From the IMG/VR virus record IMGVR_UViG_3300024327_000005, positions 22 through 64,021 of that record: a stretch of DNA of 64,000 bases. The stretch is one strand, 5' to 3'. Below are positions 38,828 to 52,550 of this stretch, in pieces (position 1 is the stretch's first letter; each line of letters starts with the position of its first letter). The position numbers and the translations under genes are program-made. The stretch is from a virus. The notes beneath the pieces were generated by a model, which worked only from the letters and a program-made list of their open reading frames with translations, searched no databases and was not told the origin of the DNA.

Positions 38828-39865
38828 ATGGCAAATAAAAAAATTACAGGGATCCCCGAAATTGATATGATTGCAGCTTCTATTGCCAAGAAATTTGGCA
38901 AAGAAGACATTATGAGTTTAGGACCTAAATATGAAAAAGTTACACCAATCTCTACAGGCTCAATATCTTTGGATGCTTGTCTTGGCGTTGGAGGCTTACC
39001 TAATGATCGTGTCGTCGAAATATATGGTCCGCCCAGTGCCGGAAAAACCTCTCTCTGCCTACAAGTACTTAAACAGTTTACAGAAAAATATGGATATGAC
39101 AGACCTCCTGTCTATGTTGATCTTGAACGCACTACTGGTTTGGATCTTGTCACTTCTATGGGGCTCGAACCAAAAAAAATGATTTTTTGTTATCCTGACA
39201 CCGCCGAAGAAGCACTTCAGCTCTGTCAAGACCTTGGTAAGACAGGTAAAGTCGGCATAATAGTTTTTGATAGTATTGACGCTGCTCAAAGCGAAAAAGA
39301 CACAAAAAGATTAATGAATGAAACGGGAGTAGGCGACTTACCTCGCTTACTTTCAAAAGCTTTGCGTTCTATATCCAAGATAAGCGTTGATAACGAATGT
39401 CTATACTTGTTTATTAATCAAGTTAGAATGAAAATTGGCGTTATGTATGGGAACCCAGAAACAACTTCAGGTGGCAACGCCATACCTTTTTACTGCTCGG
39501 TTCGACTTCGAGTAAGCAGTAAGCCCTCTAAAGATCAAGATGGCGCCATAACAATGAAGGTTAAAGTTGTCAAAAACAAAGTTGCTCCCGCTTTAAATAA
39601 AACTGCTGAGTTTGACTTTATATGTGGAAAAGGCACAGATCCTTATTTAGACATAATTGGTTATGCTAAAGACGTAGGGTTGATGAGGTTTGCAGGCTCA
39701 TCCGTCAAGTGGATAAACCCTGCAACAAAAGAAGAAGAGTCTCTTTGTACTGGTGGTAAGCTGGGGGCGAAAAGTCATTTTATTGACAACCCAGAGGACT
39801 ACCAACTGCTATATCATCATATCCTCAGTTCAGATAGAGAAGACGAGAATGAAGATGACGCATGA
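38828..39865 (+). CDS. recA: RecA recombinase
   Basis: STGSISLD, GPPSAGKT, VFDSI, FINQVRMKIGVMYGNPETTSGGNA. Confidence 0.95.
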   Translation: MANKKITGIPEIDMIAASIAKKFGKEDIMSLGPKYEKVTPISTGSISLDACLGVGGLPNDRVVEIYGPPSAGKTSLCLQVLKQFTEKYGYDRPPVYVDLERTTGLDLVTSMGLEPKKMIFCYPDTAEEALQLCQDLGKTGKVGIIVFDSIDAAQSEKDTKRLMNETGVGDLPRLLSKALRSISKISVDNECLYLFINQVRMKIGVMYGNPETTSGGNAIPFYCSVRLRVSSKPSKDQDGAITMKVKVVKNKVAPALNKTAEFDFICGKGTDPYLDIIGYAKDVGLMRFAGSSVKWINPATKEEESLCTGGKLGAKSHFIDNPEDYQLLYHHILSSDREDENEDDA

Positions 39866-41183
39866 CTGCTCCAGGCATACAGCTAAAAATAGTCAGGATA
39901 TAACCTCCAACCACACTGAGTCAAAGTATGTACATCTACATGTGCACACAGAATACTCTTTGCTTGATGGCATAAATAAGGTCTCTAGGCTCCCATCTTT
40001 TGTTAAAACTATGAATCAGCCAGCAGTTGCAATGACAGATCATGGTAACATTTCTGGGTGTTATAGGTTTTACAAAGAGTGCAACAAAGTAAATGTTAAG
40101 CCCATAATAGGCATGGAAGCTTACTATTCCATTAACGACAGAACTCTTCGAGAGCCAGACGAAATGGGAAAGAGCTATTACCACTTAATCCTTTTGGCTC
40201 AAAATAATATTGGCTTACACAACTTAATAAAGCTGTCCTCTAAAGCCTATACCACTGGCTTCTATAGGAAGCCTAGGATTGATGATAAACTTCTTGCAGA
40301 CCACTCGGAAGGTCTAATCGCTACCACTACTTGCTTGGGTAGTCGCGCCTCTCAGCTGATACTAAATAACGAAATTACTGCAGCCGAAAAATTAATTCAT
40401 CATCATCGAGCCATATTCAAAGATAGATTCATCGTTGAATTACAATTGCACCGAGAAGAAGAACAGCAGGCTGTAAATAAAGTCTTGCAGCAAATCGCTT
40501 TAAAAAACAACTTCCCGATGATAGTCACAAACGATTGTCATTACGCTTATGAGCATGATAAAATGCATCATGAAGCAGCATTATGCTTGCAGACTAAGAC
40601 AACGTTGTCGAATCCAAAGAGGTTTTCATTTGGTGAAATAAAAGTTCATATGGCAGATCATGACTGGATGTGGAACGAATCTTCAAATCAAGGAATGCCA
40701 TACGACGTTATTTCGAACACTGTCGAACTTGCGAATATGATAGATTCAGACACTTATTTTATGGACAGGATGAACAGGTACCCGAAGTTTAAAGACCTTC
40801 CCGAAGGTTATACTAGCATTGACTTTTTAGCTCTAGAAAGCCAGCATGGACTATTCAATAGGTTTGGTCAGATGCCGACTTTGGAATATCAAAACAGATT
40901 GACTCATGAACTTAATGTAATCAAAAAGATGGGATTCTCTGACTACCTGTTGATTGTAGCTCAGTTTATGGATGGAGCGCGAACAAGAGGTGTCCTTCAT
41001 GGGCCTGGTCGTGGCTCTGCTGCAGGGTCCCTAATCGCTTATGCACTAGGCATCACTGAAGTTGATCCAATCAAATACGGTTTAATCTTTGAAAGATTTT
41101 TAAATGAAGGTCGAGGAGCTACCCCTCTGATCTTCAACAAGCAAATGGCCATCAAAGCAGATGGCATAACTATACCTTTTTAA
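39849..41183 (+). CDS. dnaE: DNA polymerase III alpha (DnaE) part 1: PHP domain through the GRGS/FERFLN palm segment
   Basis: HLHVHTEYSLLDG, TDHGN, TNDCHY, GPGRGSAAGSLIAY, FERFLNEGR, then a short tail and stop. Confidence 0.9.
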   Translation: MKMTHDCSRHTAKNSQDITSNHTESKYVHLHVHTEYSLLDGINKVSRLPSFVKTMNQPAVAMTDHGNISGCYRFYKECNKVNVKPIIGMEAYYSINDRTLREPDEMGKSYYHLILLAQNNIGLHNLIKLSSKAYTTGFYRKPRIDDKLLADHSEGLIATTTCLGSRASQLILNNEITAAEKLIHHHRAIFKDRFIVELQLHREEEQQAVNKVLQQIALKNNFPMIVTNDCHYAYEHDKMHHEAALCLQTKTTLSNPKRFSFGEIKVHMADHDWMWNESSNQGMPYDVISNTVELANMIDSDTYFMDRMNRYPKFKDLPEGYTSIDFLALESQHGLFNRFGQMPTLEYQNRLTHELNVIKKMGFSDYLLIVAQFMDGARTRGVLHGPGRGSAAGSLIAYALGITEVDPIKYGLIFERFLNEGRGATPLIFNKQMAIKADGITIPF

Positions 41184-41202
41184 CACACGATAAGAGAATA
41201 CT

Positions 41203-41394
41203 ATGGATAAAACTTACGCAACAACCCTTTACGCGATCCAAGATAACCACGGGCATCTAATCAATATTAAGAATCGCTCTCTTTACACGACTAGAGTCGA
41301 CGCCAGAACAGCTAGACGCTCATTGAATCGTAACGATGTGCGAATAGTAAGGTGTGAATTTATGAACCACACCGAATGGACTCCAGCCAGATGA
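41203..41394 (+). CDS. small hypothetical protein between dnaE parts
   Basis: 63-aa ORF. Confidence 0.55.
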   Translation: MDKTYATTLYAIQDNHGHLINIKNRSLYTTRVDARTARRSLNRNDVRIVRCEFMNHTEWTPAR

Positions 41395-41651
41395 AACCAG
41401 AGGTAACGACTACAGCTGAAGCTGTAGAATTTTTAATTAAGCATCATTCAGACTTACATGATGAGCATCGCTTTGAAAAGATTTCAGACTGTGCTGATTC
41501 AATAATGAAAAGTGAAAGACCCAATACGGCTTTCCGCCACGATGATGGAAGTTGGGTTAATAATGATTATTGCGATTATTATATTAATTTAATTGCAGCG
41601 ATAACCGTACAATGGAATTCCGAAAAAAATGAAAATAGACCAAATACCTAA
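41376..41651 (+). CDS. small hypothetical protein between dnaE parts
   Basis: 91-aa ORF. Confidence 0.5.
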   Translation: MDSSQMKPEVTTTAEAVEFLIKHHSDLHDEHRFEKISDCADSIMKSERPNTAFRHDDGSWVNNDYCDYYINLIAAITVQWNSEKNENRPNT

Positions 41652-41874
41652 ATTTTGGCGCAACAATGCGCCTGCAAAATCATTCACAGACAATTACTGG
41701 ACTGACGGGTACGATTTGTACTCCTATCAACTCAAGATAGGAGAAACGCTCCCTGACGGAACCAAAATTCTTTACGATTACACTAAAGCTGCTGGAAGGT
41801 TTATTTCTGCTACAACTAGCCGCCATGTAAACTTAGCGGCTTTCTACGCTAACGAAAAAGAAGCCCCAATGTAA
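41629..41874 (+). CDS. conserved phage hypothetical protein
   Basis: TDG..LYSY..KIG...YDYT...S.TTSRHV motif. Confidence 0.6.
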   Translation: MKIDQIPKFWRNNAPAKSFTDNYWTDGYDLYSYQLKIGETLPDGTKILYDYTKAAGRFISATTSRHVNLAAFYANEKEAPM

Positions 41875-41899
41875 GGGTAGTTAACAACCACCCTTACAT
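41869..41899. promoter_or_regulatory. perfect 10-bp inverted repeat upstream of dnaE part 2
   Basis: ATGTAAGGGT/ACCCTTACAT. Confidence 0.45.
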
Positions 41900-41943
41900 C
41901 TACGAACACTTGGCAGAATCCAACGCTTAAACATAGGAACCTC

Positions 41944-43566
41944 ATGGATCAAAAAAGAAAAGAAATATTACAGTACATTGATAAATGTATTATAGATGAA
42001 AGAATTAATCAAGTAGACCCTGATTTCCTAGAGTTTGAAATTAAAATGTCTTCTTTAAAAGATTTACAAATGATTTCAGACTGCTTGTATTCAGTTGCGA
42101 ACCTTCAAGATAAAGATCTTCACTTACCAATTTTCGCTAACAACCCCTATAATAGTATCTTACTTTATATAACTAGGTTGACAGATGAATTTGATTTTTT
42201 AAAAGCCAGGTCAAATACTATAGACGGATCTCCTCCTGATATTGATATTGACCATGATGCTTTAGATCGAGAAATTGCAATCGAGTGGTGTGCTGATTAT
42301 TGGGGTCAAGATAAAGTAGCGAATATAATAACGCACGGAACCTTTAAGCCAAAAAGTCTTGCTCGCTCTTATTATCGAATCACTGAAAAAGAGTCTGAAG
42401 ATTTAAGCGAGCTGTTAAAGAAGATTCCTCCACCTAAGTTTGGTAAGGAAGCTACATTAGAAGAGGTTCTTGAATTGAACCCTGAAGTTAAAGACGATGA
42501 GAGATATGGAGACTTCTTGGAATTCGCTGACAGGATAGAGGGCATGGTATCTAATTTTGGTATCCATGCCGCTGGAATTATCATTAGTGATAACGACATA
42601 GATGATATAGTCCCGCTATGGAAGAATAAAAAAGCTGAAAGAATAACTCAATTCGACAAAGACGAATGTGAAGAGTTAGGTCTGATTAAATTCGACTTCT
42701 TGGGAATAGATACTCTTTCTATAATTAAAGAGTGTGTGAGCCTTGTTGAAGAAAACCATGATGTTAAATTAAATCCATACGCTATTGAAGATTTTGACGA
42801 AGCCACATATGCCACATTAGACAAAGGCTTACTCACAGGAGTCTTTCAGATGGAAACTTCTGGCGTGGCTAAAAAGCTCATTGTAAAAATTAAACCAAGA
42901 TCTATAGAAGATTTATCTGCTATTTCTGCTTTGAACAGACCAGGTCCGCTACAAGCGGGACTCGACAAAGAATACATAATCAACAAATATAATAACGCTC
43001 CACCATCAAGTCTTCCAGAAAACATAGCTAACATTTTAAAAAGTTCATACTGGACTCTTGTCTATCAGGAGCAAGTTATGGAAATCTGTTCTAGTATCGC
43101 TGGGTTCACTCCCAAAGAAGCCGATGACATTAGGAGAGCTATGGGCAAGAAGAAAGTAGAAGTACTCAACGAGTATCAAAAGAAATTTGTAACTGGGTGT
43201 ATTTCTGTAGGTGGCTTATCAGAATCCTATAGTCAAGACCTATGGGAAAACCTTGTGGGATTCGCAGACTACTGCCTGCATGGAAGCACAAAGATCAAGG
43301 CTCAAGGTGGAGCCTTAAGTATTGAAAGTATTGTTAAAAACAAAATTCCTGCGACTATCGTTTCTGCTGATACTAATTCTGAAAGATTTTATTTACAAAG
43401 AGTTGCTCAATGGTATGAAAAAGGCAAAAAGAAATGTTATAAGTACGTAACAGATACTGGAGCTGAGATTTCTTGCACTCCAGAACATAAATTTTTAACT
43501 ATTAATAACGAAATGGTTGAAATTGAATCCATATATGAACGAAACTTAATATTAAAAACACAATAA
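41944..43566 (+). CDS. dnaE: DnaE part 2: catalytic palm/thumb/fingers fused to split-intein IntN
   Basis: PPDIDID, HAAG, KFDFLG, GVFQME, LNRPGP, VYQEQVM, RRAMGKK, FADY|CL. Confidence 0.92.
   Translation: MDQKRKEILQYIDKCIIDERINQVDPDFLEFEIKMSSLKDLQMISDCLYSVANLQDKDLHLPIFANNPYNSILLYITRLTDEFDFLKARSNTIDGSPPDIDIDHDALDREIAIEWCADYWGQDKVANIITHGTFKPKSLARSYYRITEKESEDLSELLKKIPPPKFGKEATLEEVLELNPEVKDDERYGDFLEFADRIEGMVSNFGIHAAGIIISDNDIDDIVPLWKNKKAERITQFDKDECEELGLIKFDFLGIDTLSIIKECVSLVEENHDVKLNPYAIEDFDEATYATLDKGLLTGVFQMETSGVAKKLIVKIKPRSIEDLSAISALNRPGPLQAGLDKEYIINKYNNAPPSSLPENIANILKSSYWTLVYQEQVMEICSSIAGFTPKEADDIRRAMGKKKVEVLNEYQKKFVTGCISVGGLSESYSQDLWENLVGFADYCLHGSTKIKAQGGALSIESIVKNKIPATIVSADTNSERFYLQRVAQWYEKGKKKCYKYVTDTGAEISCTPEHKFLTINNEMVEIESIYERNLILKTQ
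43273..43563 (+). other. split intein N-half (97 aa), DnaE type
   Basis: CL..T.I...VAQW...G...T.EHKF.T...I.ER.L matches cyanobacterial Npu/Ssp DnaE IntN; block B TxxH present. Confidence 0.92.
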
Positions 43567-43577
43567 GAGGTTTTCTT

Positions 43578-43946
43578 ATGGCTACACACTCTACAAATAT
43601 CTCTAACGGGACCCATATTATAGGGAGTACAGTTCAAATTGACACTTTAAATGTCAATAAAACGAGCACCCATGAAGAGATAATGAACTCTCTTCCTTCT
43701 TATCATACAATCATCGCATCAGGGACTGCTAACCCTGAAGAAATTTCATTAGTTGCTCCTGTGAGCGTTGATCATGTAGACAATTCTATGTTTTTTGTTG
43801 ACGGACAAGCACTATCAAGAATGCCTGACCCGACCAACCTGGGACCAGGCTATCATTTAACTGCAGACGGAATGACTTTGACCATAAGCGGTTTCACTAA
43901 TTTAAGTACTAGTGAGATCCATGGATTGTATACAGATCAACCATAA
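43578..43946 (+). CDS. putative virion structural or adaptor protein (beta-rich)
   Basis: T/S-rich, FVDGQALS; first gene of the fibre cassette. Confidence 0.5.
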   Translation: MATHSTNISNGTHIIGSTVQIDTLNVNKTSTHEEIMNSLPSYHTIIASGTANPEEISLVAPVSVDHVDNSMFFVDGQALSRMPDPTNLGPGYHLTADGMTLTISGFTNLSTSEIHGLYTDQP

Positions 43947-43990
43947 TGTTAATATGATCCAAAATACACTATCTAAATAGGAGAGAGAAA

Positions 43991-44395
43991 ATGGCCGTTG
44001 TATATCCAGGATTAGTAAATATAGACGCTTCTACAATTACGGTAACCACCGTGAATGTTTATGACGACAATCAAAGAACCCATACATACGATTTAAGTGA
44101 TCAGTTTCCAGACTGGAATCCCGAACCAGATGGTAACAGCCTAACAGGCGACGCCCTCATCGCTGCGCAGCAACCTCTGAGTACAATAACCCTGCCTGCA
44201 TCAGCAAGAGTCAATACTATAATGATTATATTAGACGGAATGACTTTATCTCCCCAATTGAATCCAAATGGCGCTGGCGACTATAAAATTGCTACTAGTA
44301 AAATAATCGATTTACTCTGGGACGACGCAGAGCTTCCGAGACGACATAGTAGTACGGACACTCCTGTACTTTTAGCTCGCTATACACTAGCTTAA
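43991..44395 (+). CDS. putative virion structural or adaptor protein
   Basis: ILDGMTLS, similar to the previous gene's motif; strong RBS AGGAG. Confidence 0.5.
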
Positions 44396-44408
44396 TAAGG
44401 ATTCCATA

Positions 44409-47117
44409 ATGGCTACAAGAAGAACTGACTTACGCAAAGGGGCAATTGACAGCTCTGTCATAACCCAGATTACAAATACCGTCATAGCACAAGTATCAGG
44501 ATCAATTGGTGCAACTGGACCTGCTGGTGCAACTGGACCTCAGGGGACCCAAGGTCAAGCTGGGGCACAAGGCTCACAAGGACCAACAGGCAATGTAGGT
44601 CCTGTGGGCCCCACAGGTGACAGTGGAATTCAAGGCTCACAAGGATCGACGGGCAACGATGGCTCTGTTGGGCCTCAAGGCCTCACTGGCGTTCAAGGAC
44701 CTACAGGCGATGCCGGTGCACAAGGAATCCAAGGCCCCCTGGGGCCTCAAGGTGCCACTGGAGACGATGGCGCTACAGGGCTTCAAGGTATTCAGGGAAT
44801 AACAGGCAACGACGGTGCTACAGGTCCTCAGGGCGTTCAAGGCGATACAGGGCCTCAAGGTGCTGCTGGAAATGATGGAGCTCAAGGTAATCCAGGTTCC
44901 ACTGGAGCTACTGGCCCACAGGGCGCCACTGGCGCTGACGGAATCGACGGAGCAACAGGGCCTCAAGGCGACACTGGCGCAACTGGTCCTACTGGCGCTA
45001 CGGGTCCACAAGGAGCAACAGGAACTAACGGTTCTAACGGAATCGACGGAGCTCAAGGCCCCACAGGGGCTCAAGGCGTTGACGGTCCACAAGGGATTCA
45101 AGGACCCGTTGGTGCCGATGGTGCAACTGGTGCTGACGGAGCAGTTGGACCCCAAGGGGCGACTGGCAACGATGGTGCTCAAGGCGTTGCTGGCCCAACA
45201 GGCGTTGCTGGCCCAACAGGCGCTGACGGAACCGACGGAGCAAATGGAGTGCAAGGCTCAACGGGTGATACTGGTGCAACAGGACCGGCAGGCGCAACTG
45301 GGTCAACTGGCCCCAGAGGCGACGCATTCGCTATAGACCAAACAGGAGTCTTAATCGAGAGTGCTATTAGTAGTATTCAGGCTACCTCTTCAATCACTGC
45401 ACAAAATCCATACTTCTTTGTTATCACTACTGACAGCAGATCTGATAGTAGTACGCCGAGTCCTTTAGCTGGCGATATGTCTGGACATCTTGTTGTCTAT
45501 GATGGGAGTGTTTGGTCTGATTTCGGTCAGTTTACAGGTACAAAAGGTGATACTGGCGATACGGGGACTCAAGGTCCCCAGGGAGCTCAGGGAGTTGTCG
45601 GTGCCACTGGAGCAGCAGGGAGCACAGGCCCTCAAGGTGACGTGGGTTCTACTGGTCCTGCAGGAGCAACTGGACCTCAAGGAATTCAAGGCGATACAGG
45701 TCCTCAAGGTGTTCAAGGTACCGCTGGGATCACAGGCCCTCAAGGAGCTACAGGATCTGCTGGGGCTGCTGGTAGTACCGGTCCTCAAGGGGACGCGGGT
45801 TCTACTGGACCAACAGGTGCAACAGGCCCACAAGGTGTGCAGGGTGATACAGGACCAACCGGACCGCAAGGCGACACTGGAGCTGCTGGACCAACAGGCA
45901 CTCAAGGCGTCCAGGGTCCCACTGGAGACACGGGCTCAACAGGATCTACTGGGGCCACAGGACTGCAAGGTGATACTGGGACGACCGGAAGTACCGGATC
46001 TCAAGGCCCCACCGGGGCAACAGGCCCTGTAGGAGCAACTGGATCTCAAGGAATTCAAGGGCCTCAAGGCGATGCTGGAGCTACAGGGTCCGTTGGGGCA
46101 ACAGGCCCTATAGGAAACACTGGCGTCCAAGGTCCCGCTGGAGACACGGGAACCCAGGGAGTAACAGGGCCTCAAGGCGACACCGGCGCTACAGGAGCGG
46201 CTGGAGCTACAGGACCGACCGGCGCTACAGGAGCGGCTGGTGCCGGTGCAAACAATGCAACTATTGCGACCACTCTTTCTACCCACAGTGGCTTTATAGC
46301 AAGCGTTGGGGATGACCTAGCAGCAGACACCAGCTTCCAAGCGAGCGTCAAAGGTGATACAGGGGCAACTGGACTCCAAGGGAGTATTGGGGCTACAGGA
46401 CCGCAAGGAGACCAGGGCCTCACTGGAGTAACAGGAGCTACTGGTCCTGTTGTGATTGCAACAGCAAGCATTCTTGGTGGTGTTAAGATTAATGGGAATA
46501 ACCTTTCTATTAATGCTTCTGGAGTCCTATCTTCTGAAGACACAGCGTTACATTCACAAGTTGATCAAATAGAAACAACTATAGGCTTAGCTACTGGAGG
46601 CACGTTAGGTTCTTGGGCCAATCATGCTAACTACAGTGTAGCAGCAACTGTTAAAGCAGCTATTGAAGGGGTTGATGAGCAAGTTAGGTTGCAAACAATT
46701 AACATAACTTCTCTTAACTCATTAGGAAATCTTCACGAAACTGCTATTGGGATTAGTTCTACAGGTAACTATGAAAGTAGAAGTGGCACAAACTATATAG
46801 ATAGCGCAACAGATGTTGTTGGAGAAGCTACTCTACTTGATGCGCAGGTTAAAACCAATGCAGATAATATTGATCTTTTAGAAATTAGAGGCGGCGGATT
46901 GCTTATGGAAACGACGACCGCGGGAATATATCTTCCAGATACAATAATGCTATCAAGTCATGCAGGGCCATTTAGGATTGATTTCGCACAAGCAATAGCG
47001 AATAGTGGTGCTGCCGATTTGACATTCTATGGAACCAAAGCAAAAACACACGAAGATCGACATTTTACAATAGACACCACAACTGGCGACATTACCTTTA
47101 CAGGTACTACACTTTAA
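44409..47117 (+). CDS. collagen-like fibre protein (~180 Gly-X-Y triplets in three blocks)
   Basis: GAT/GPQ/GPT triplets at about 44496-45323, 45538-46250 and 46352-46450; [15 protein letters not shown] linker. Confidence 0.92.
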
Positions 47118-47149
47118 ATTAAAAACTTTATATTGCAGGAGAGATTACC

Positions 47150-50100
47150 ATGGCAAAAATAAAACCTGAAACATCCGGAGATCATGACCTCGGAGACAGC
47201 TCCTTTAAGTGGGGCGCCGTGCACACGGTGCACGTCGAAACAGAAACCTTGACTACCTCTGGGAATCTTGTTGTAGGCGGTACGCTAACCGTAACCGGAT
47301 CAAACATTGTTGCTGAAGTGACAACTATAGCAGCAGAAGATCCGCTTATAAGTCTTGCAAAAGACAATACTGGCGATGTATTCGATATCGGATTCTATGG
47401 AAAAGCTGTTAATGGTTCTTCTGAAACCGATTATCATGGTTTTGTTAGAGCTGCATCTGATGGTAAATTCAAAATCTTTAAAAATGCGTCTGCCGAACCT
47501 ACTACAACTGTAGGCTCCCATGAAGTAGCCACGCTTGTGGCTGATCTTGAAGTTCCTAACGGAAGCTCTCTAAAAGTTCCTCAAGCCAATGGGACTCCAA
47601 TAGATTACATTACTGCTGTAACTTTAGGTACTGCTCAGGCTAATAAAGTTCTTACTGTAGACAATAGTAAAAATCTCACTGGAATTAATAATATCACTGC
47701 TTCTGGTACGATCCAAGCTGGTAATGTTTTGATTTCAGGAAGCGCAATTAGCACTTCTGGAGGTGCAGCTCCTTCTTTTGAAGAAGTTGCTATCACTGGT
47801 GGCTCTATTGATGGTACAACTATTGGTGGTACAACTGCAGCTGCTGTTACTGCGACTACTTTAAGTGCAAGTAGTGCTACTGTTAGCGGTACAACAACTT
47901 TGCAAGGAGCAGTTACGCTAGGCAATGCTGCTGCAGACGATATTACCGTAACAGGTAGTCTTGCATCTAGTGTAGTTCCAAAAGTAGATGGAACTCATGA
48001 TCTGGGTACTAATGCACTAAGAATGCGCCATGTCTATTCAGACAACATTACAGCAACTACTATCAATGCATTTGCTGCTGGTGGGGCTGTAAATTTCAAT
48101 AATCAAGATATGACTAATGTAAAAATTACTAGTGGTAGTATTTCTGGTTCCGACGTTACTGTTGGCGTAGGTAAGACTCTCAACGTTTCAGCTGGCACTA
48201 TTACTTTTGCTGCAGGCCAAGTCTCTAATACTGATTTAGCTACGATTAATACTGCTGGTAAAGTTTCACTTGGTGCTTTAGATATTGATGGTGCGGATGA
48301 AATGGACGCTGCTATCGCTGATGCCGACCTGCTCATTATTGATGATGGTGGCAACGGTATAGAAAAATCTATGTTAGCATCTCGCATCCCCACTTATGTT
48401 ATTTCAAAACTAAGCGGTGGAACTGGCGTTGCCCATCTTAATGGTACGTTTAGTATCGGTCAAGCAGTTGCGACTACTGATGATGTTACTTTTAGTACTG
48501 TCACTGCAACTACTTTTTCTGGTGTAGTAACTAGCATCTCTAATCATACAACTCAAAATCTCACAGAGCATTCTGACAACAAGTATTACACTGATGAAAG
48601 AGTAGACGATAGAGTTAGTGAGTTACTAAGCGACGGCCAAGCAATTGGTCTTAGTTATGCTGACAATGGAGCTGGAGCTTTAACAATTGCAGTCGATACT
48701 GCTACTGCTTCAACTTTAGGTGTAGCTTCTTTTTCAGGTGACAACTTCCTTGTTTCAAGTGGTGCTGTAACTATCAAGGATGGCGGTATTGCAAATGCTG
48801 AGTTAGCTCAAAGCGCCATGAGTATTGCAGGTCAATCAGTTTCACTTGGCGCTAGTATTACTGCAGCATCTATAGCTGCTGCTATCGGTGGCGAAGCTAT
48901 GGAATTAACAGCTGTTACCGATCTTGATAGTCCTCAAAGTAACTTGACAATCTTTAACACTAATAATGCTAGTCGTACACTTACGATAGGTGCTGTAAAT
49001 GGTACTATTGCGATTCCAGGTGATCTTGATCTTACAGGAGATATGAAAGACGATCTCAATCTTGTAGCAACAAAGAAGTATCAGATTGCTGGTACTGATG
49101 TTTTGTCTGCCACTACTCTCGGAAGCGGTGTTGTCGCTTCTAGCCTTACTTCAGTAGGTGCTCTTGCCTCAGGTAGTATTGCTTCTGGTTTTGGAACCAT
49201 CTCTACTGCAAGTAATATCTCTACTACTCAAGTTATTAATTTAGCTACAGACGCAGATATAGACGGCTATTCCGCAGACAGTGCAACCGGCAGACTTACT
49301 TTAGGCACGAGTAACGATCTAAGCCTTTATCATGGTGGAACTAATTCTTATATTGTCAATAAAGTTGGCGAACTTCGGCTTGACGCTCCTTTTTCTAGTG
49401 AGATTTCACTCTCTATAGCTGGTGCTGAAGAGGCGCATATCGATGCTGACGGTATCGATCTTGCTAGTGGTAATGACTACAGAATTAATAATGCGTCTGT
49501 ACTTTCAGCTACTACTCTCGGTTCAGGTGTAGTTGCTTCAAGCTTGACTACTGTGGGTGCTTTGGATTCAGGTAGTATTACTAATGGATTCACGTCCATT
49601 GATGTTGGTTCAGGTGCAATCACAACAACTGGAACTCTTACTGGGGGAATCCTGGCGGTTGATGATATTCAGATTAACGGATCTAATATTGGGCACACCG
49701 ATGATATTGACCTGCTTACTGTTGCAAGTGGAACCCTTACTGTTGCAGGGCGTGTAGATTTAACTACACTCGCTATTGGTAGTACTGATATTACTGCTGA
49801 CGCAACTGAACTGAATTATGTTGATGGAGTTACAAGTAACATCCAAACACAGCTTGATGCTAAAGCTCCAGCGGCCAATCCAATCTTCTCAGGCACCATT
49901 ACTTTTGGTAACGCAGTGATTAGCGAAGCAGAGCTAGAAATTCTCGACGGTGCGTTAATTTCCACTACCGAACTAAATCATCTTAACAATGCTTCTGGCT
50001 CTATCCAGACACAGCTTGATGCTAAACAAGGCCTAAACACTCAACTTACTACGCTTTCAACCAGCCTGACAGCAGCTGTTGCCACAGAGCTTGTTGCGTT

Positions 50101-50740
50101 AGCCGATGGGGAGATTGAAGTTCTTGATGGCGCAACTCCTGGTTCAGCAGTTGCAAGTAAAGCTCTTGTGGTCAATGGTTCTAAAAACATTGGCACTCTC
50201 GGTACTGTTACTCTTGGTACTCTTACTGATGGTACTGCTACTTTGACTGGCGGTGCACTAACCAGCTTAACAAAGCTTACTGTAGACAATTTGCAATTAA
50301 ACGCCAATGATCTTAAATCTACCTCTGGTGATTTAAATCTAAACTCTGCAAGTGGTGACGTTAAAATAGCAGCTGGAGTTGATCTTACATTATTGTCTGG
50401 GGGTAATATTACTGCTGATGGCAATGTTAGCATTAACGGTCTTTTGGAAACTGATGGAGTTAGACGAAAAACTTTAATCAAAACCGATTCTTATACTATT
50501 GTTGGTGACGACCATACTATTCTATTCAACGTAGAGTCGGATAGTACTTGCACTTTGGCTACTTCTAACGATTCCGACATGGTTTCTAAAGAGTATGTAA
50601 TCAAAAATGTGGGCTCAAATACTATAACTTTTGCTTCCACCAGTCAGATTGATGGAAGCCCTGCTTCCAACACTACGCTTACTGCAGGACAAAAAATAAA
50701 AGTTATAGGTACAGCAGCATTTGGTTGGCAGTCAATTTAA
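47150..50740 (+). CDS. large tail-fibre or virion fibre-like protein with internal repeats
   Basis: P....HDLG....W motif twice; VLSATTLGSGVVASSLT twice; TELN....IQTQLDAK twice; T/G/S/A-rich. Confidence 0.7.
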   Translation: MAKIKPETSGDHDLGDSSFKWGAVHTVHVETETLTTSGNLVVGGTLTVTGSNIVAEVTTIAAEDPLISLAKDNTGDVFDIGFYGKAVNGSSETDYHGFVRAASDGKFKIFKNASAEPTTTVGSHEVATLVADLEVPNGSSLKVPQANGTPIDYITAVTLGTAQANKVLTVDNSKNLTGINNITASGTIQAGNVLISGSAISTSGGAAPSFEEVAITGGSIDGTTIGGTTAAAVTATTLSASSATVSGTTTLQGAVTLGNAAADDITVTGSLASSVVPKVDGTHDLGTNALRMRHVYSDNITATTINAFAAGGAVNFNNQDMTNVKITSGSISGSDVTVGVGKTLNVSAGTITFAAGQVSNTDLATINTAGKVSLGALDIDGADEMDAAIADADLLIIDDGGNGIEKSMLASRIPTYVISKLSGGTGVAHLNGTFSIGQAVATTDDVTFSTVTATTFSGVVTSISNHTTQNLTEHSDNKYYTDERVDDRVSELLSDGQAIGLSYADNGAGALTIAVDTATASTLGVASFSGDNFLVSSGAVTIKDGGIANAELAQSAMSIAGQSVSLGASITAASIAAAIGGEAMELTAVTDLDSPQSNLTIFNTNNASRTLTIGAVNGTIAIPGDLDLTGDMKDDLNLVATKKYQIAGTDVLSATTLGSGVVASSLTSVGALASGSIASGFGTISTASNISTTQVINLATDADIDGYSADSATGRLTLGTSNDLSLYHGGTNSYIVNKVGELRLDAPFSSEISLSIAGAEEAHIDADGIDLASGNDYRINNASVLSATTLGSGVVASSLTTVGALDSGSITNGFTSIDVGSGAITTTGTLTGGILAVDDIQINGSNIGHTDDIDLLTVASGTLTVAGRVDLTTLAIGSTDITADATELNYVDGVTSNIQTQLDAKAPAANPIFSGTITFGNAVISEAELEILDGALISTTELNHLNNASGSIQTQLDAKQGLNTQLTTLSTSLTAAVATELVALADGEIEVLDGATPGSAVASKALVVNGSKNIGTLGTVTLGTLTDGTATLTGGALTSLTKLTVDNLQLNANDLKSTSGDLNLNSASGDVKIAAGVDLTLLSGGNITADGNVSINGLLETDGVRRKTLIKTDSYTIVGDDHTILFNVESDSTCTLATSNDSDMVSKEYVIKNVGSNTITFASTSQIDGSPASNTTLTAGQKIKVIGTAAFGWQSI

Positions 50741-50787
50741 TTAAAGTAATCAACACACAGTAATATAAAGTAATCTTTTAGTTTTGA

Positions 50788-50822
50788 GGGGTAGTTCGCA
50801 TTGGCGGGCTACCCCTTTTTTT
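50788..50822 (+). terminator. intrinsic terminator closing the fibre cassette
   Basis: GGGGTAGTTCGC-ATTG-GCGGGCTACCCC followed by T7. Confidence 0.85.
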
Positions 50823-50842
50823 ATATATAAAGGAAAAGAAAA

Positions 50843-51079
50843 ATGTTCGACTCGTTTCAAGAAGCACTAGAAGGTGCTCTACAGTGGACGAAATGGCACG
50901 GCCTAACCATCAAGTCTATAAAGACTTATAGAATAGAGCCACACGAATTCTACTCAACAGAATTCACTACAACAACTAACAAAAGTTATGTCTGTACTTG
51001 GGAGAGCTCTCAAGTAACATTCATTGAAATACCCAACGAAACCTCAAGGAACCTAAATGCGTATAGTCGCAACCTATGA
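50843..51079 (+). CDS. small hypothetical protein
   Basis: RBS AAGGA; 78 aa. Confidence 0.55.
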   Translation: MFDSFQEALEGALQWTKWHGLTIKSIKTYRIEPHEFYSTEFTTTTNKSYVCTWESSQVTFIEIPNETSRNLNAYSRNL

Positions 51080-51284
51080 AAACCCAAAATTCTGTAATCT
51101 TGCAGATATTGACAACTATAAAAACAAATTCAATTTCGATGGATTTGAAACCACAACTATTTATGCTTCTAGCTTAGTAGACCTAAAGCGACAAGTGAAC
51201 TTAACAAGACTTCAAAGAGCCTCTCAAAGAGGCTCTAGCAGGCCCTTAAAGTTAAGTGATTTAACCATTAGAATAAAGGATTAA
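51057..51284 (+). CDS. small hypothetical protein
   Basis: 75-aa ORF. Confidence 0.5.
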   Translation: MRIVATYENPKFCNLADIDNYKNKFNFDGFETTTIYASSLVDLKRQVNLTRLQRASQRGSSRPLKLSDLTIRIKD

Positions 51285-51287
51285 CTT

Positions 51288-51401
51288 ATGAAAATAATTT
51301 CAAAGGAGTACCTTGGAGAAGAAGAAGTTTATGATATTGGTGTAGCTTCTTTGGAAGGCAATCATAACTTTGTTCTCGAGAATGGAATTATAGCTTCTAA
51401 T
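51288..51401 (+). other. split intein C-half (38 aa)
   Basis: MKIISKEYLGEEEVYDIGV...HNFVLENGIIASN then Cys+1; compare Npu MIKIATRKYLGKQNVYDIGVERDHNFALKNGFIASN. Confidence 0.93.
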
Positions 51402-52550
51402 TGCTTTAATAAAGCACATAGCGTTAGCTACTCCATACTCACTTATGTAAGCGCGTATATGAAGACGCATTACCCTGTGGAGTTTTTTACTGCGTTGATG
51501 TCCACAAGAAGTAAAACTTTACAGCCTAAATCCTGGGCAATTAAAGCTCCTGAATACATTCAAGAAGCTAAAAAGTTTGGTGTGCATGTGTATCCGCCAT
51601 TTGTTAATCAAAGCGGATACGAATTCACAATCAGTGATGGCGAGATATACTTTGGGCTCAATGCAATCAGAGACGTCGGCAAGACTGCTGCTCGTATGAT
51701 TATTAAAGCTCGACAAAAAACACCCTTTAAATCTGTTAAAGATTTTATTTCAAGAATTAACCTTCAAAAAGTAAATACAAAAACGTTCGATGCTCTTGTT
51801 AAGGCTGGTGCCTTCGATAAGCTAGGTTACGATAGAGCAGGACTTCTAGAGAAGTGCCCTTTAATTTACGCATACGTAAGAGATCTTGAAGACTACAAGC
51901 AGCGCCAGTTAGACGTTGTGGAGCGAGACAATTACAACAACCAAGTTGTTCCGCTTATAGAGCGTAGAAACTTTCTTAGAAAAGAACTTAAGAAAATACA
52001 GAACAGAATTGATAAAGATAAAGTAAAAGAGAATGACATAGACAATTTTCATCTCATGTCTGAGGAACTAGAACCATTAGAAGCTGAGAACTTAAAGAAA
52101 AAAGTCTCTCTAAAGCCGAAAGAGAAGCCTGAGTTCCCCGAACTTCTTAAGTCAGATTCTATTGAGCTAGGTATGGAAGAGATATTAAATCAAGCAAATT
52201 ACATTGGTTGTTACATTGGTGGACACCCACTAGATTTGATATCAATTAAAAAAGACGACCTGGATTCATTAGAGGAAGGTGACTACGCTAACGTCGCTGG
52301 TGTCATCCTTTCTATGAAAGAGATTACAACAAGAAAAAACAAACAGATGGCTTTCGTTGAAATTAATGATAAAACTAGTTCAGCTGAAATTGTTATTTTT
52401 CCACAGCTATGGAAAAAAGTTTCAAGTCTAGGCTTAAAAGAAACTACAATCGTTACCTGCAAGGTAAAGGTTGAGCAAGTTGAGCCAGATATAAAGCTTA
52501 TTTTAAATTCAATTAATATTTATAAGGACTTTTATGAGATGGACTCCTGA
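51288..52550 (+). CDS. dnaE: DnaE part 3: split-intein IntC fused to C-terminal fingers, HhH and OB domains
   Basis: IASN|CFNKAH, HYPVEF, FGLNAIRDVG, KAGAFD, IGGHPLD, MAFVEINDKTSSAEIVIFP. Confidence 0.92.
   Translation: MKIISKEYLGEEEVYDIGVASLEGNHNFVLENGIIASNCFNKAHSVSYSILTYVSAYMKTHYPVEFFTALMSTRSKTLQPKSWAIKAPEYIQEAKKFGVHVYPPFVNQSGYEFTISDGEIYFGLNAIRDVGKTAARMIIKARQKTPFKSVKDFISRINLQKVNTKTFDALVKAGAFDKLGYDRAGLLEKCPLIYAYVRDLEDYKQRQLDVVERDNYNNQVVPLIERRNFLRKELKKIQNRIDKDKVKENDIDNFHLMSEELEPLEAENLKKKVSLKPKEKPEFPELLKSDSIELGMEEILNQANYIGCYIGGHPLDLISIKKDDLDSLEEGDYANVAGVILSMKEITTRKNKQMAFVEINDKTSSAEIVIFPQLWKKVSSLGLKETTIVTCKVKVEQVEPDIKLILNSINIYKDFYEMDS

Follow-up and report, generated by a model that had tools for sequence, protein, structure and literature searches.

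How does a split intein of the cyanobacterial DnaE type come to lie in the DNA polymerase III alpha subunit gene (dnaE) of a marine phage, and would its two halves, encoded there on either side of a block of other genes, still find each other and splice? The question is raised by a stretch of 64,000 nucleotides (nt) of the IMG/VR viral record IMGVR_UViG_3300024327_000005, hereafter the window, which takes up nearly the whole of a 65.5-kb contig estimated to be ~40% complete and which is carried by an uncultured marine phage with a genome of ~160 kb. Natural protein trans-splicing has its founding example in the cyanobacterial DnaE split intein, on which the most widely used protein-ligation tools are based. 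The literature that we searched assigns the inteins at this insertion point (PolIII-alpha site a) to a cyanobacterial group with a single, irreversible break at its origin, and we found in it no report of a site-a split intein allele from a virus; according to Novikova et al. (2016; PMC4760082), site-a inteins are widespread in Cyanobacteria, all known ones are split, and viruses are not mentioned. Here, we describe an N-terminal (IntN) and a C-terminal (IntC) intein fragment in the dnaE gene of the window, which very likely constitute a functional class-1 intein that is naturally split and is an allele and homologue of the cyanobacterial one.

Results

The window dnaE carries both halves of a cyanobacterial-type intein

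The open reading frame (ORF) at 41944-43566 ends in LVGFADY/CLHGST...CTPEHKF...IYERNLILKTQ and a stop codon (here and below, the slash marks the boundary between intein and extein, or the corresponding insertion site). Its residues 444-540 (C444 to Q540) form an IntN of 97 amino acids (aa), encoded at 43273-43563, with the stop at 43564-43566. The ORF at 51288-52550 opens with MKIISKEY...NHNFVLENGIIASN/CFNKAH; its residues 1-38 constitute IntC (51288-51401), and Cys+1, the first residue of the C-extein, is encoded at 51402-51404. Both halves lie on the same strand, with 7721 nt between the IntN stop and the IntC start. The first-pass annotation of this DNA, made from the letters alone, had described a 97-aa IntN at FADY/CLHGST and a 38-aa IntC at IASN/CFNKAH, some 7.7 kb apart, and our coordinates, motifs and spacing agree with it exactly.

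All residues of a class-1 intein are present, namely C1, the block B T-x-x-H, the block F Asp, the block G His, the terminal Asn and Cys+1. The gene is broken at the same point as in the cyanobacterial intein, that is, at the endonuclease-insertion position between blocks B and F, which leaves two separate genes with a stop after IntN and an ATG at IntC. Alignments with the cyanobacterial halves show a common insertion site, FA(D/E)Y/CFNK(A/S)H of the finger domain, and thus confirm the earlier assignment to the Npu/Ssp site. Moreover, part 2 of dnaE (N-extein and IntN) reaches the end of the cyanobacterial DnaE-N model NF007079 (profile positions 403-869 of 876), and part 3 (IntC and C-extein) aligns to the cyanobacterial DnaE-C model NF005616 from position 2.

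The proposed similarity to the Npu and Ssp inteins is equally evident from searches of PDB chains, in which IntN matched the Npu/Ssp DnaE inteins with E-values of 2.7e-17 to 1e-12 (the best being 4lx3, Npu DnaE IntN, at 2.7e-17), the next-best matches (gp41-1, RecA and DnaB inteins) stood at ~1e-3 or worse, and IntC matched the same Npu/Ssp entries with E-values of 9e-10 to 1e-6. Both halves also pass the generic NCBIfam intein models (TIGR01445, 42 bits with a cut-off of 24.5; TIGR01443, 34.7 bits with a cut-off of 15.6), so that the profile comparison, too, is in line with the annotation. Across phage and cyanobacterial alignments, C1, block A, T-x-x-H, VYDIG, HNF...ASN and Cys+1 followed by Phe are conserved. 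The terminal Asn is followed by Cys in each of the 60 phage-type IntC sequences parsed, 57 of which end in ASN, and the same ending is found in 42 of 43 cyanobacterial IntC sequences; the penultimate residue is therefore Ser and not His, as had been noted, and it is the same Ser in cyanobacteria.

The polymerase that carries the intein is of a different kind. IntN is 32-41% identical to cyanobacterial IntN sequences, and parts 2 and 3 remain below the cut-offs of the cyanobacterial equivalog models (313 vs 1525 bits for NF007079 and 239.5 vs 646 bits for NF005616), in a test in which the cyanobacterial control P0094 scores 744.6 bits; for the window exteins, generic DnaE models also give higher scores than the cyanobacterial contiguous-DnaE model does. 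Since the exteins fail the cyanobacterial models while the intein halves match, the intein is of cyanobacterial type and the carrier polymerase is not. Judged by site, split point and sequence, the window intein belongs to the same lineage as the Npu/Ssp DnaE intein.

The halves are predicted to pair through strands of reversed charge

In a folded model of IntN with IntC, IntN residues 494-503 run antiparallel to IntC residues 3-14. The predicted complex has an interaction prediction score from aligned errors (ipSAE) of 0.66 (best of three controls, 0.00) at a predicted local distance difference test score (pLDDT) of 65-66 for the partners, and three prediction runs share 89% of their contacts; the ipSAE mark that we used is reached by 51 of 78 solved complexes and by 2 of 108 mismatched pairs.

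The contacting strands of the window are basic in IntN (WYEKGKKKCYKYVT, net charge +4) and acidic in IntC (IISKEYLGEEEV, net charge -3), whereas those of cyanobacteria are acidic in IntN (0 to -4) and neutral-to-basic in IntC (0 to +3). The same reversal is seen in the whole fragments, with charges of +3 (IntN) and -5 (IntC) in the window and cyanobacterial medians of -9 and ~+1, respectively. Over 18 IntN/IntC pairs the net charges of the two strands are anticorrelated (Spearman rho -0.65, p 0.0035), and this also holds when only the 10 pairs from phages are considered (rho -0.78, p 0.007). Such covariation may be read as the signature expected of partners that need to find each other. Furthermore, the catalytic residues have been kept while phage IntN sequences diverged to ~45% identity, which argues for selection on splicing, beyond docking. 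As far as sequence and predicted structure allow us to judge, the halves probably trans-splice.

Given the reversed polarity, cross-reaction with Npu halves is less likely, and orthogonality of the window pair to Npu is plausible. Inversion of the IntN/IntC electrostatics is the route to orthogonality taken in engineered charge-swapped pairs of Npu DnaE, which are used as orthogonal split inteins; the window pair shows this inversion naturally but, unlike the engineered pairs, is a natural one that has diverged at many other positions.

The arrangement recurs in a family of marine phages

At least 12 seawater metagenome runs contain the window stretch. In two independent seawater runs (X8 and X10, not flagged as source), contigs bridge both the junction of IntN with the intervening genes (hereafter the cassette) and that of the cassette with IntC, with 0 differences, and no joints were seen across the locus in four runs. 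Hence, the arrangement is not an assembly artefact, a doubt that the first-pass annotation had itself raised and that the bridging contigs dispel.

More than 20 related loci on viral contigs show the order uvsX, part 1, part 2-IntN, cassette, IntC-part 3, phosphoesterase, Cas4 and primase, with an IntN-IntC gap of 2.2-13.6 kb among the phage relatives. Three of the relatives are represented by complete genomes (158-162 kb), of which two carry direct terminal repeats. In all five phage genomes that were searched whole (these three included), IntN and IntC are each encoded by exactly one gene, and the two genes share a strand. In a word-indexed protein search of Tara, JGI, ENA and Logan marine data, phage-type IntC-part 3 proteins made up ~80 clusters (at 90% identity), with cyanobacterial DnaE-C proteins ranking below them. 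In a library with one genome per prokaryotic species, the motif N/CFNK(A/S)HS occurs essentially only in Cyanobacteria, apart from a misbinned phage contig; this contig, 111.8 kb long and binned in a 'Magnetovibrio' metagenome-assembled genome (MAG), is a phage of the same kind, and the MAG has its own ordinary dnaE elsewhere. Near-identity and protein searches found no record with the intein halves in the GenBank phage collection, which may omit records close to the window. The genes psbA and T4-type gp23 were not found in five relatives, among them three complete genomes, although the gp23 control matched nowhere and the gp23 result is thus uninformative.

Organization of the dnaE locus

The right half of the window is a replication module with all genes on the same strand, in the order ribonucleotide reductase, UvsX/RecA-like recombinase, dnaE, SbcD-like phosphoesterase, Cas4-type nuclease and primase-helicase. 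Within it, dnaE consists of three ORFs, parts 1, 2 and 3 (Table 1).

Table 1. Features of the dnaE locus, with positions in the window.
Feature	Position	Strand	Content and supporting matches
dnaE part 1	39849..41183	+	PHP and start of palm/NTPase domain; Pfam PHP E 3.6e-47; DNA_pol3_alpha profile positions 4-102
Three small ORFs (63, 91, 81 aa)	41203..41874	+	In intein-free break between parts 1 and 2
dnaE part 2, N-extein (443 aa)	41944..43272	+	Ends in GFADY; DNA_pol3_alpha positions 100-260; DNA_pol3_finger E 1.7e-46
IntN (97 codons and stop)	43273..43566	+	Cys1 = C444; block A CLHGST; block B T-P-E-H
Cassette of four genes (122, 134, 902, 1196 aa)	43578..50740	+	Pfam, synteny
Terminator-like hairpin	50786..50817	+	14-bp stem with 8 G-C pairs, then T run
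Two small ORFs (78, 75 aa)	50843..51284	+	Between terminator and IntC
IntC (38 codons)	51288..51401	+	Block F VYDIGV; block G NHNF...IASN
dnaE part 3, C-extein (382 aa)	51402..52550	+	From Cys+1 of CFNKAH; HHH_6 E 1.8e-28; OB fold E 8.9e-7

The cassette between the intein halves encodes, in this order, proteins of 122 and 134 aa, a 902-aa protein with collagen triple-helix repeats (Pfam Collagen, E 8.5e-82) and a 1196-aa protein for which the nearest Atlas clusters consist of viral fibre-like proteins, a match that we take as a lead only. The G+C content rises to 54% at window positions 44000-46000, compared with ~38% elsewhere, because of the Gly-X-Y collagen repeats of the 902-aa gene. The content of the cassette varies among the relatives, in which other long repetitive proteins and one protein with a ConA-like lectin domain are found. 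On these similarities, the cassette genes probably encode virion fibre or surface proteins. The ORFs between the window halves gave no match to a homing endonuclease (Pfam to E = 1, and PHROGs for three ORFs), in agreement with the earlier statement that none is recognisable there, nor was one found by Pfam and PHROGs in those cassette ORFs of the relatives that were scanned. The 78-aa and 75-aa ORFs that follow the terminator have no Pfam match, and the 75-aa ORF is kept just upstream of part 3 in one relative (L003, 67% identity).

The first cassette gene begins 11 nt past the IntN stop and has a GAGG ribosome-binding site, and this spacing suggests a single transcription unit for part 2 and the cassette. 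The ATG of the IntC ORF is likewise preceded by a ribosome-binding site; given the terminator after the cassette, part 3 would need its own start downstream of it. We found no enrichment of the T4/Aeh1 late-promoter motif TATAAATA and no copy of it in the locus, and a scan for sigma-70-like promoters gave no more sites than in shuffled sequence. Contigs from RNA libraries fall mostly on the cassette and almost never on parts 2 and 3 of dnaE, a pattern for which DNA carry-over is possible and in which missing cover is uninformative.

The gene has a second break, between parts 1 and 2 (window 41183-41944), which is free of any intein and falls between DNA_pol3_alpha profile positions 102 and 100. 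Around it, part 1 has ~20 extra residues at its C-terminus, and the N-extein of part 2 comprises ~95 additional N-terminal residues followed by what remains of the palm and by the finger domain. An origin of the N-terminus of part 2 as a decayed duplicate of the end of part 1 had no statistical support (BLASTP E 3.4). The break is kept in all relatives (L002-L010), with a gap of 0.28-4 kb that holds variable small ORFs; the three small ORFs of the window gap have no Pfam match. Part 1 likely starts at the ATG at 39849, which lies inside a longer GTG frame opening at 39753, and the part 1 proteins of the relatives align to the longer frame from residues 36-59 onward only.

Further interruptions were observed in genes of the relatives. 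In L246 (G016:C1:89800-93200), a 324-aa ORF on the opposite strand with weak matches to endonuclease-associated families (HNH_repeat, E 0.013; DUF2726, E 0.07) interrupts part 2 once more, at SAISAIN / RNRPGPLQ, which results in a four-piece dnaE, and L008 has ~270 extra nt within part 2 (1198-1468), near residue 401 of the window protein. The uvsX/recA-like gene of L006 (1544-3558) and L010 (3970-5938) is split after residue 209 by a same-strand ORF of 205 aa, the C-terminus of which resembles, by eye, a Vsr/DUF559-type nuclease.

Intein and extein histories

In intein trees built from IntN or from concatenated IntN and IntC and rooted with other inteins, the cyanobacterial inteins, including that of a Gloeobacterales MAG, form one compact clade (support 96/94 and 99/95, respectively). 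Around it, the phage lineages are paraphyletic and branch much more deeply. Forcing the phage inteins into one clade costs 7.4 log-likelihood units, and phage monophyly is not rejected (approximately unbiased [AU] test, p 0.173); hence, we claim no direction of transfer from phage to cyanobacterium. The greater depth of the phage inteins could also be explained by faster evolution in phages. Since the intein and extein histories disagree, at least one horizontal transfer of the intein at this conserved site is required, from a phage to a cyanobacterial dnaE or the reverse. The suggestion that the window intein is informative for the origin of the DnaE split intein stands.

Two relatives, L009 and L198, possess a contiguous part 2-3 gene that reads GFADY-CFNK(S/A)H without a cassette at the site, and in L009 the phosphoesterase gene follows directly after the fused gene. 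Both keep Cys+1, where more distant viral DnaE proteins have Gly, Ser or Ala. In the C-extein tree, they form a clade (99/94) nested within split-bearing lineages (99/98), and the simplest reading of this nesting is a secondary loss or replacement of intein and cassette, rather than an ancestral empty site. Such a loss is at odds with the idea that these breaks are irreversible; apparently, the break can be reversed or replaced.

A distant viral dnaE (L204 and L205, identical; L205 8606-11161) has a contiguous 279-aa intein at the Y/CFNKAH site, with an intact-looking HNH motif (C-x2-C...HH...N...C-x2-C-H). It is thus a contiguous cis allele, in contrast to the statement that the known site-a inteins are split without exception (Novikova et al., 2016; PMC4760082). 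We do not present this intein as the ancestor of the split form, since it is too divergent for such a placement and its very long branch falls outside the split clade. Three further viral dnaE genes (L209, L214 and L240), examined as candidate cis alleles of site a, were found to carry cis inteins at a neighbouring site four residues downstream (GFNK/C...N/SHA), one with LAGLIDADG motifs and one a mini-intein. Hence, there are two adjacent intein sites in the finger loop of viral dnaE.

Discussion

We propose that parts 2 and 3 of the window dnaE would be translated as separate proteins and brought together by the intein that they carry. The basic IntN strand around GKKKCYKY would zip antiparallel onto the acidic IntC strand KEYLGEEE and complete the HINT (Hedgehog/intein) fold, after which splicing would take its standard course. 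Cys1 would undergo an N-S acyl shift, followed by transesterification to Cys+1; once the terminal Asn had cyclised, an S-N shift would yield a spliced 825-aa polypeptide reaching from the fingers to the OB fold, with the junction GFADY-CFNKAH. Part 1, with the PHP domain and early palm, would join non-covalently, because the second break has no intein. The variable fibre-like cassette would occupy the place at which other inteins carry a homing endonuclease, apparently being transcribed together with part 2 and ending in a terminator of its own.

Several points weigh against this proposal. Splicing itself we infer from conservation, covariation and the predicted complex. The complex may only mirror known structures, because Npu DnaE complexes have been solved, and the charge-covariation statistics ignore shared ancestry. 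IntN alone stays under the gathering score of the Pfam model Intein_splicing PF14890 (28.3 vs 35.8 bits), which is expected because the model covers both halves and IntN is only one of them. Finally, parts 1 and 2 of the polymerase evidently work without an intein, so that non-covalent breaks are tolerated, and the intein halves could by the same token be a docking device that never splices and leaves the polymerase a non-covalent assembly. We consider this improbable, since all nucleophiles and assisting residues are present and conserved across the family, since Cys1, the terminal Asn and Cys+1 would be superfluous for docking, and since even the intein-less relatives retain Cys+1.

The closest characterised relatives of both halves are cyanobacterial, as they would be if the phage had recently captured cyanobacterial DNA or if the contig were a chimeric assembly. 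To this we attach hardly any probability: the exteins fall short of the cyanobacterial equivalog cut-offs and do better on generic DnaE models, IntN shares no more than 32-41% of its residues with its cyanobacterial counterparts, more than 20 viral contigs of different samples, some of them genomes with terminal repeats, show the same arrangement, and the junctions are bridged by independent runs. It seems just as improbable that a contiguous intein gene is expressed after excision of the 7.7-kb insert, either from the DNA by a programmed rearrangement or from the RNA as an intron. The IntN stop and the IntC ATG with its ribosome-binding site lie exactly at the canonical split point, the cassette has long conserved ORFs and its own terminator, and the four runs inspected showed no joints. 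A trans-splicing class-1 intein therefore remains the reading that we strongly favour.

The window intein resembles the cyanobacterial DnaE split intein (Ssp PCC6803, Npu) in the Y/CFNK site, the split point, the penultimate Ser, the Phe at +2 and the class-1 residues, as well as in length (97 + 38 aa vs ~102 + 36 aa). It differs in its host gene, a divergent phage dnaE that fails the equivalog models, in an IntN identity of ~32-41%, in an insert of 2-3 residues (SLEG) in IntC, in the reversed charge polarity, and in having its halves in cis around a cassette of fibre genes. The classic arrangement in cyanobacteria is a distant one; in Egbenema (L120/L166) and Microcoleus vaginatus (L135/L170), we observed dnaE-n and dnaE-c on one strand, ~1 kb and ~3.3 kb apart. 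Another point of comparison is provided by the fractured genes of marine phages (gp41, NrdJ, NrdA, IMPDH and DnaE-1/2/3), in which a single free-standing homing endonuclease lies in the gap and the three DnaE loci have non-cyanobacterial integration points (Dassa et al., 2009; PMC2677866). Like these, the window locus is a phage replication gene from marine metagenomes that is broken by a split intein, with both halves on one strand and foreign genes between them, but in the window family the gap consists of 2-14 kb of variable structural-type genes with no recognisable endonuclease.

A protein-ligation element that is widely used is thus also present in viruses, and in more diverse forms. The dozens of natural variants are candidate orthogonal ligation tools, and some of them, including the window pair, have inverted docking charges. 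A large, variable fibre cassette inside an essential replication gene is, moreover, an unusual gene arrangement, and the intein-less alleles nested among split ones bear on the reversibility of the break. Viral allelic split inteins also make the origin and the transfer route testable with real sequences. Possibly, though as a whole we think this rather unlikely, the DnaE split intein is primarily a phage element, which became split in a phage dnaE when a structural-gene cassette replaced the endonuclease or entered its position, diversified there and passed once to an early cyanobacterium; the halves of the essential gene would then serve as conserved recombination arms for swapping host-range (fibre) cassettes, and the charge-inverted pair of the window would be naturally orthogonal to Npu. 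If such a phage origin is true, the Npu/Ssp intein would be a domesticated offshoot of a viral lineage.

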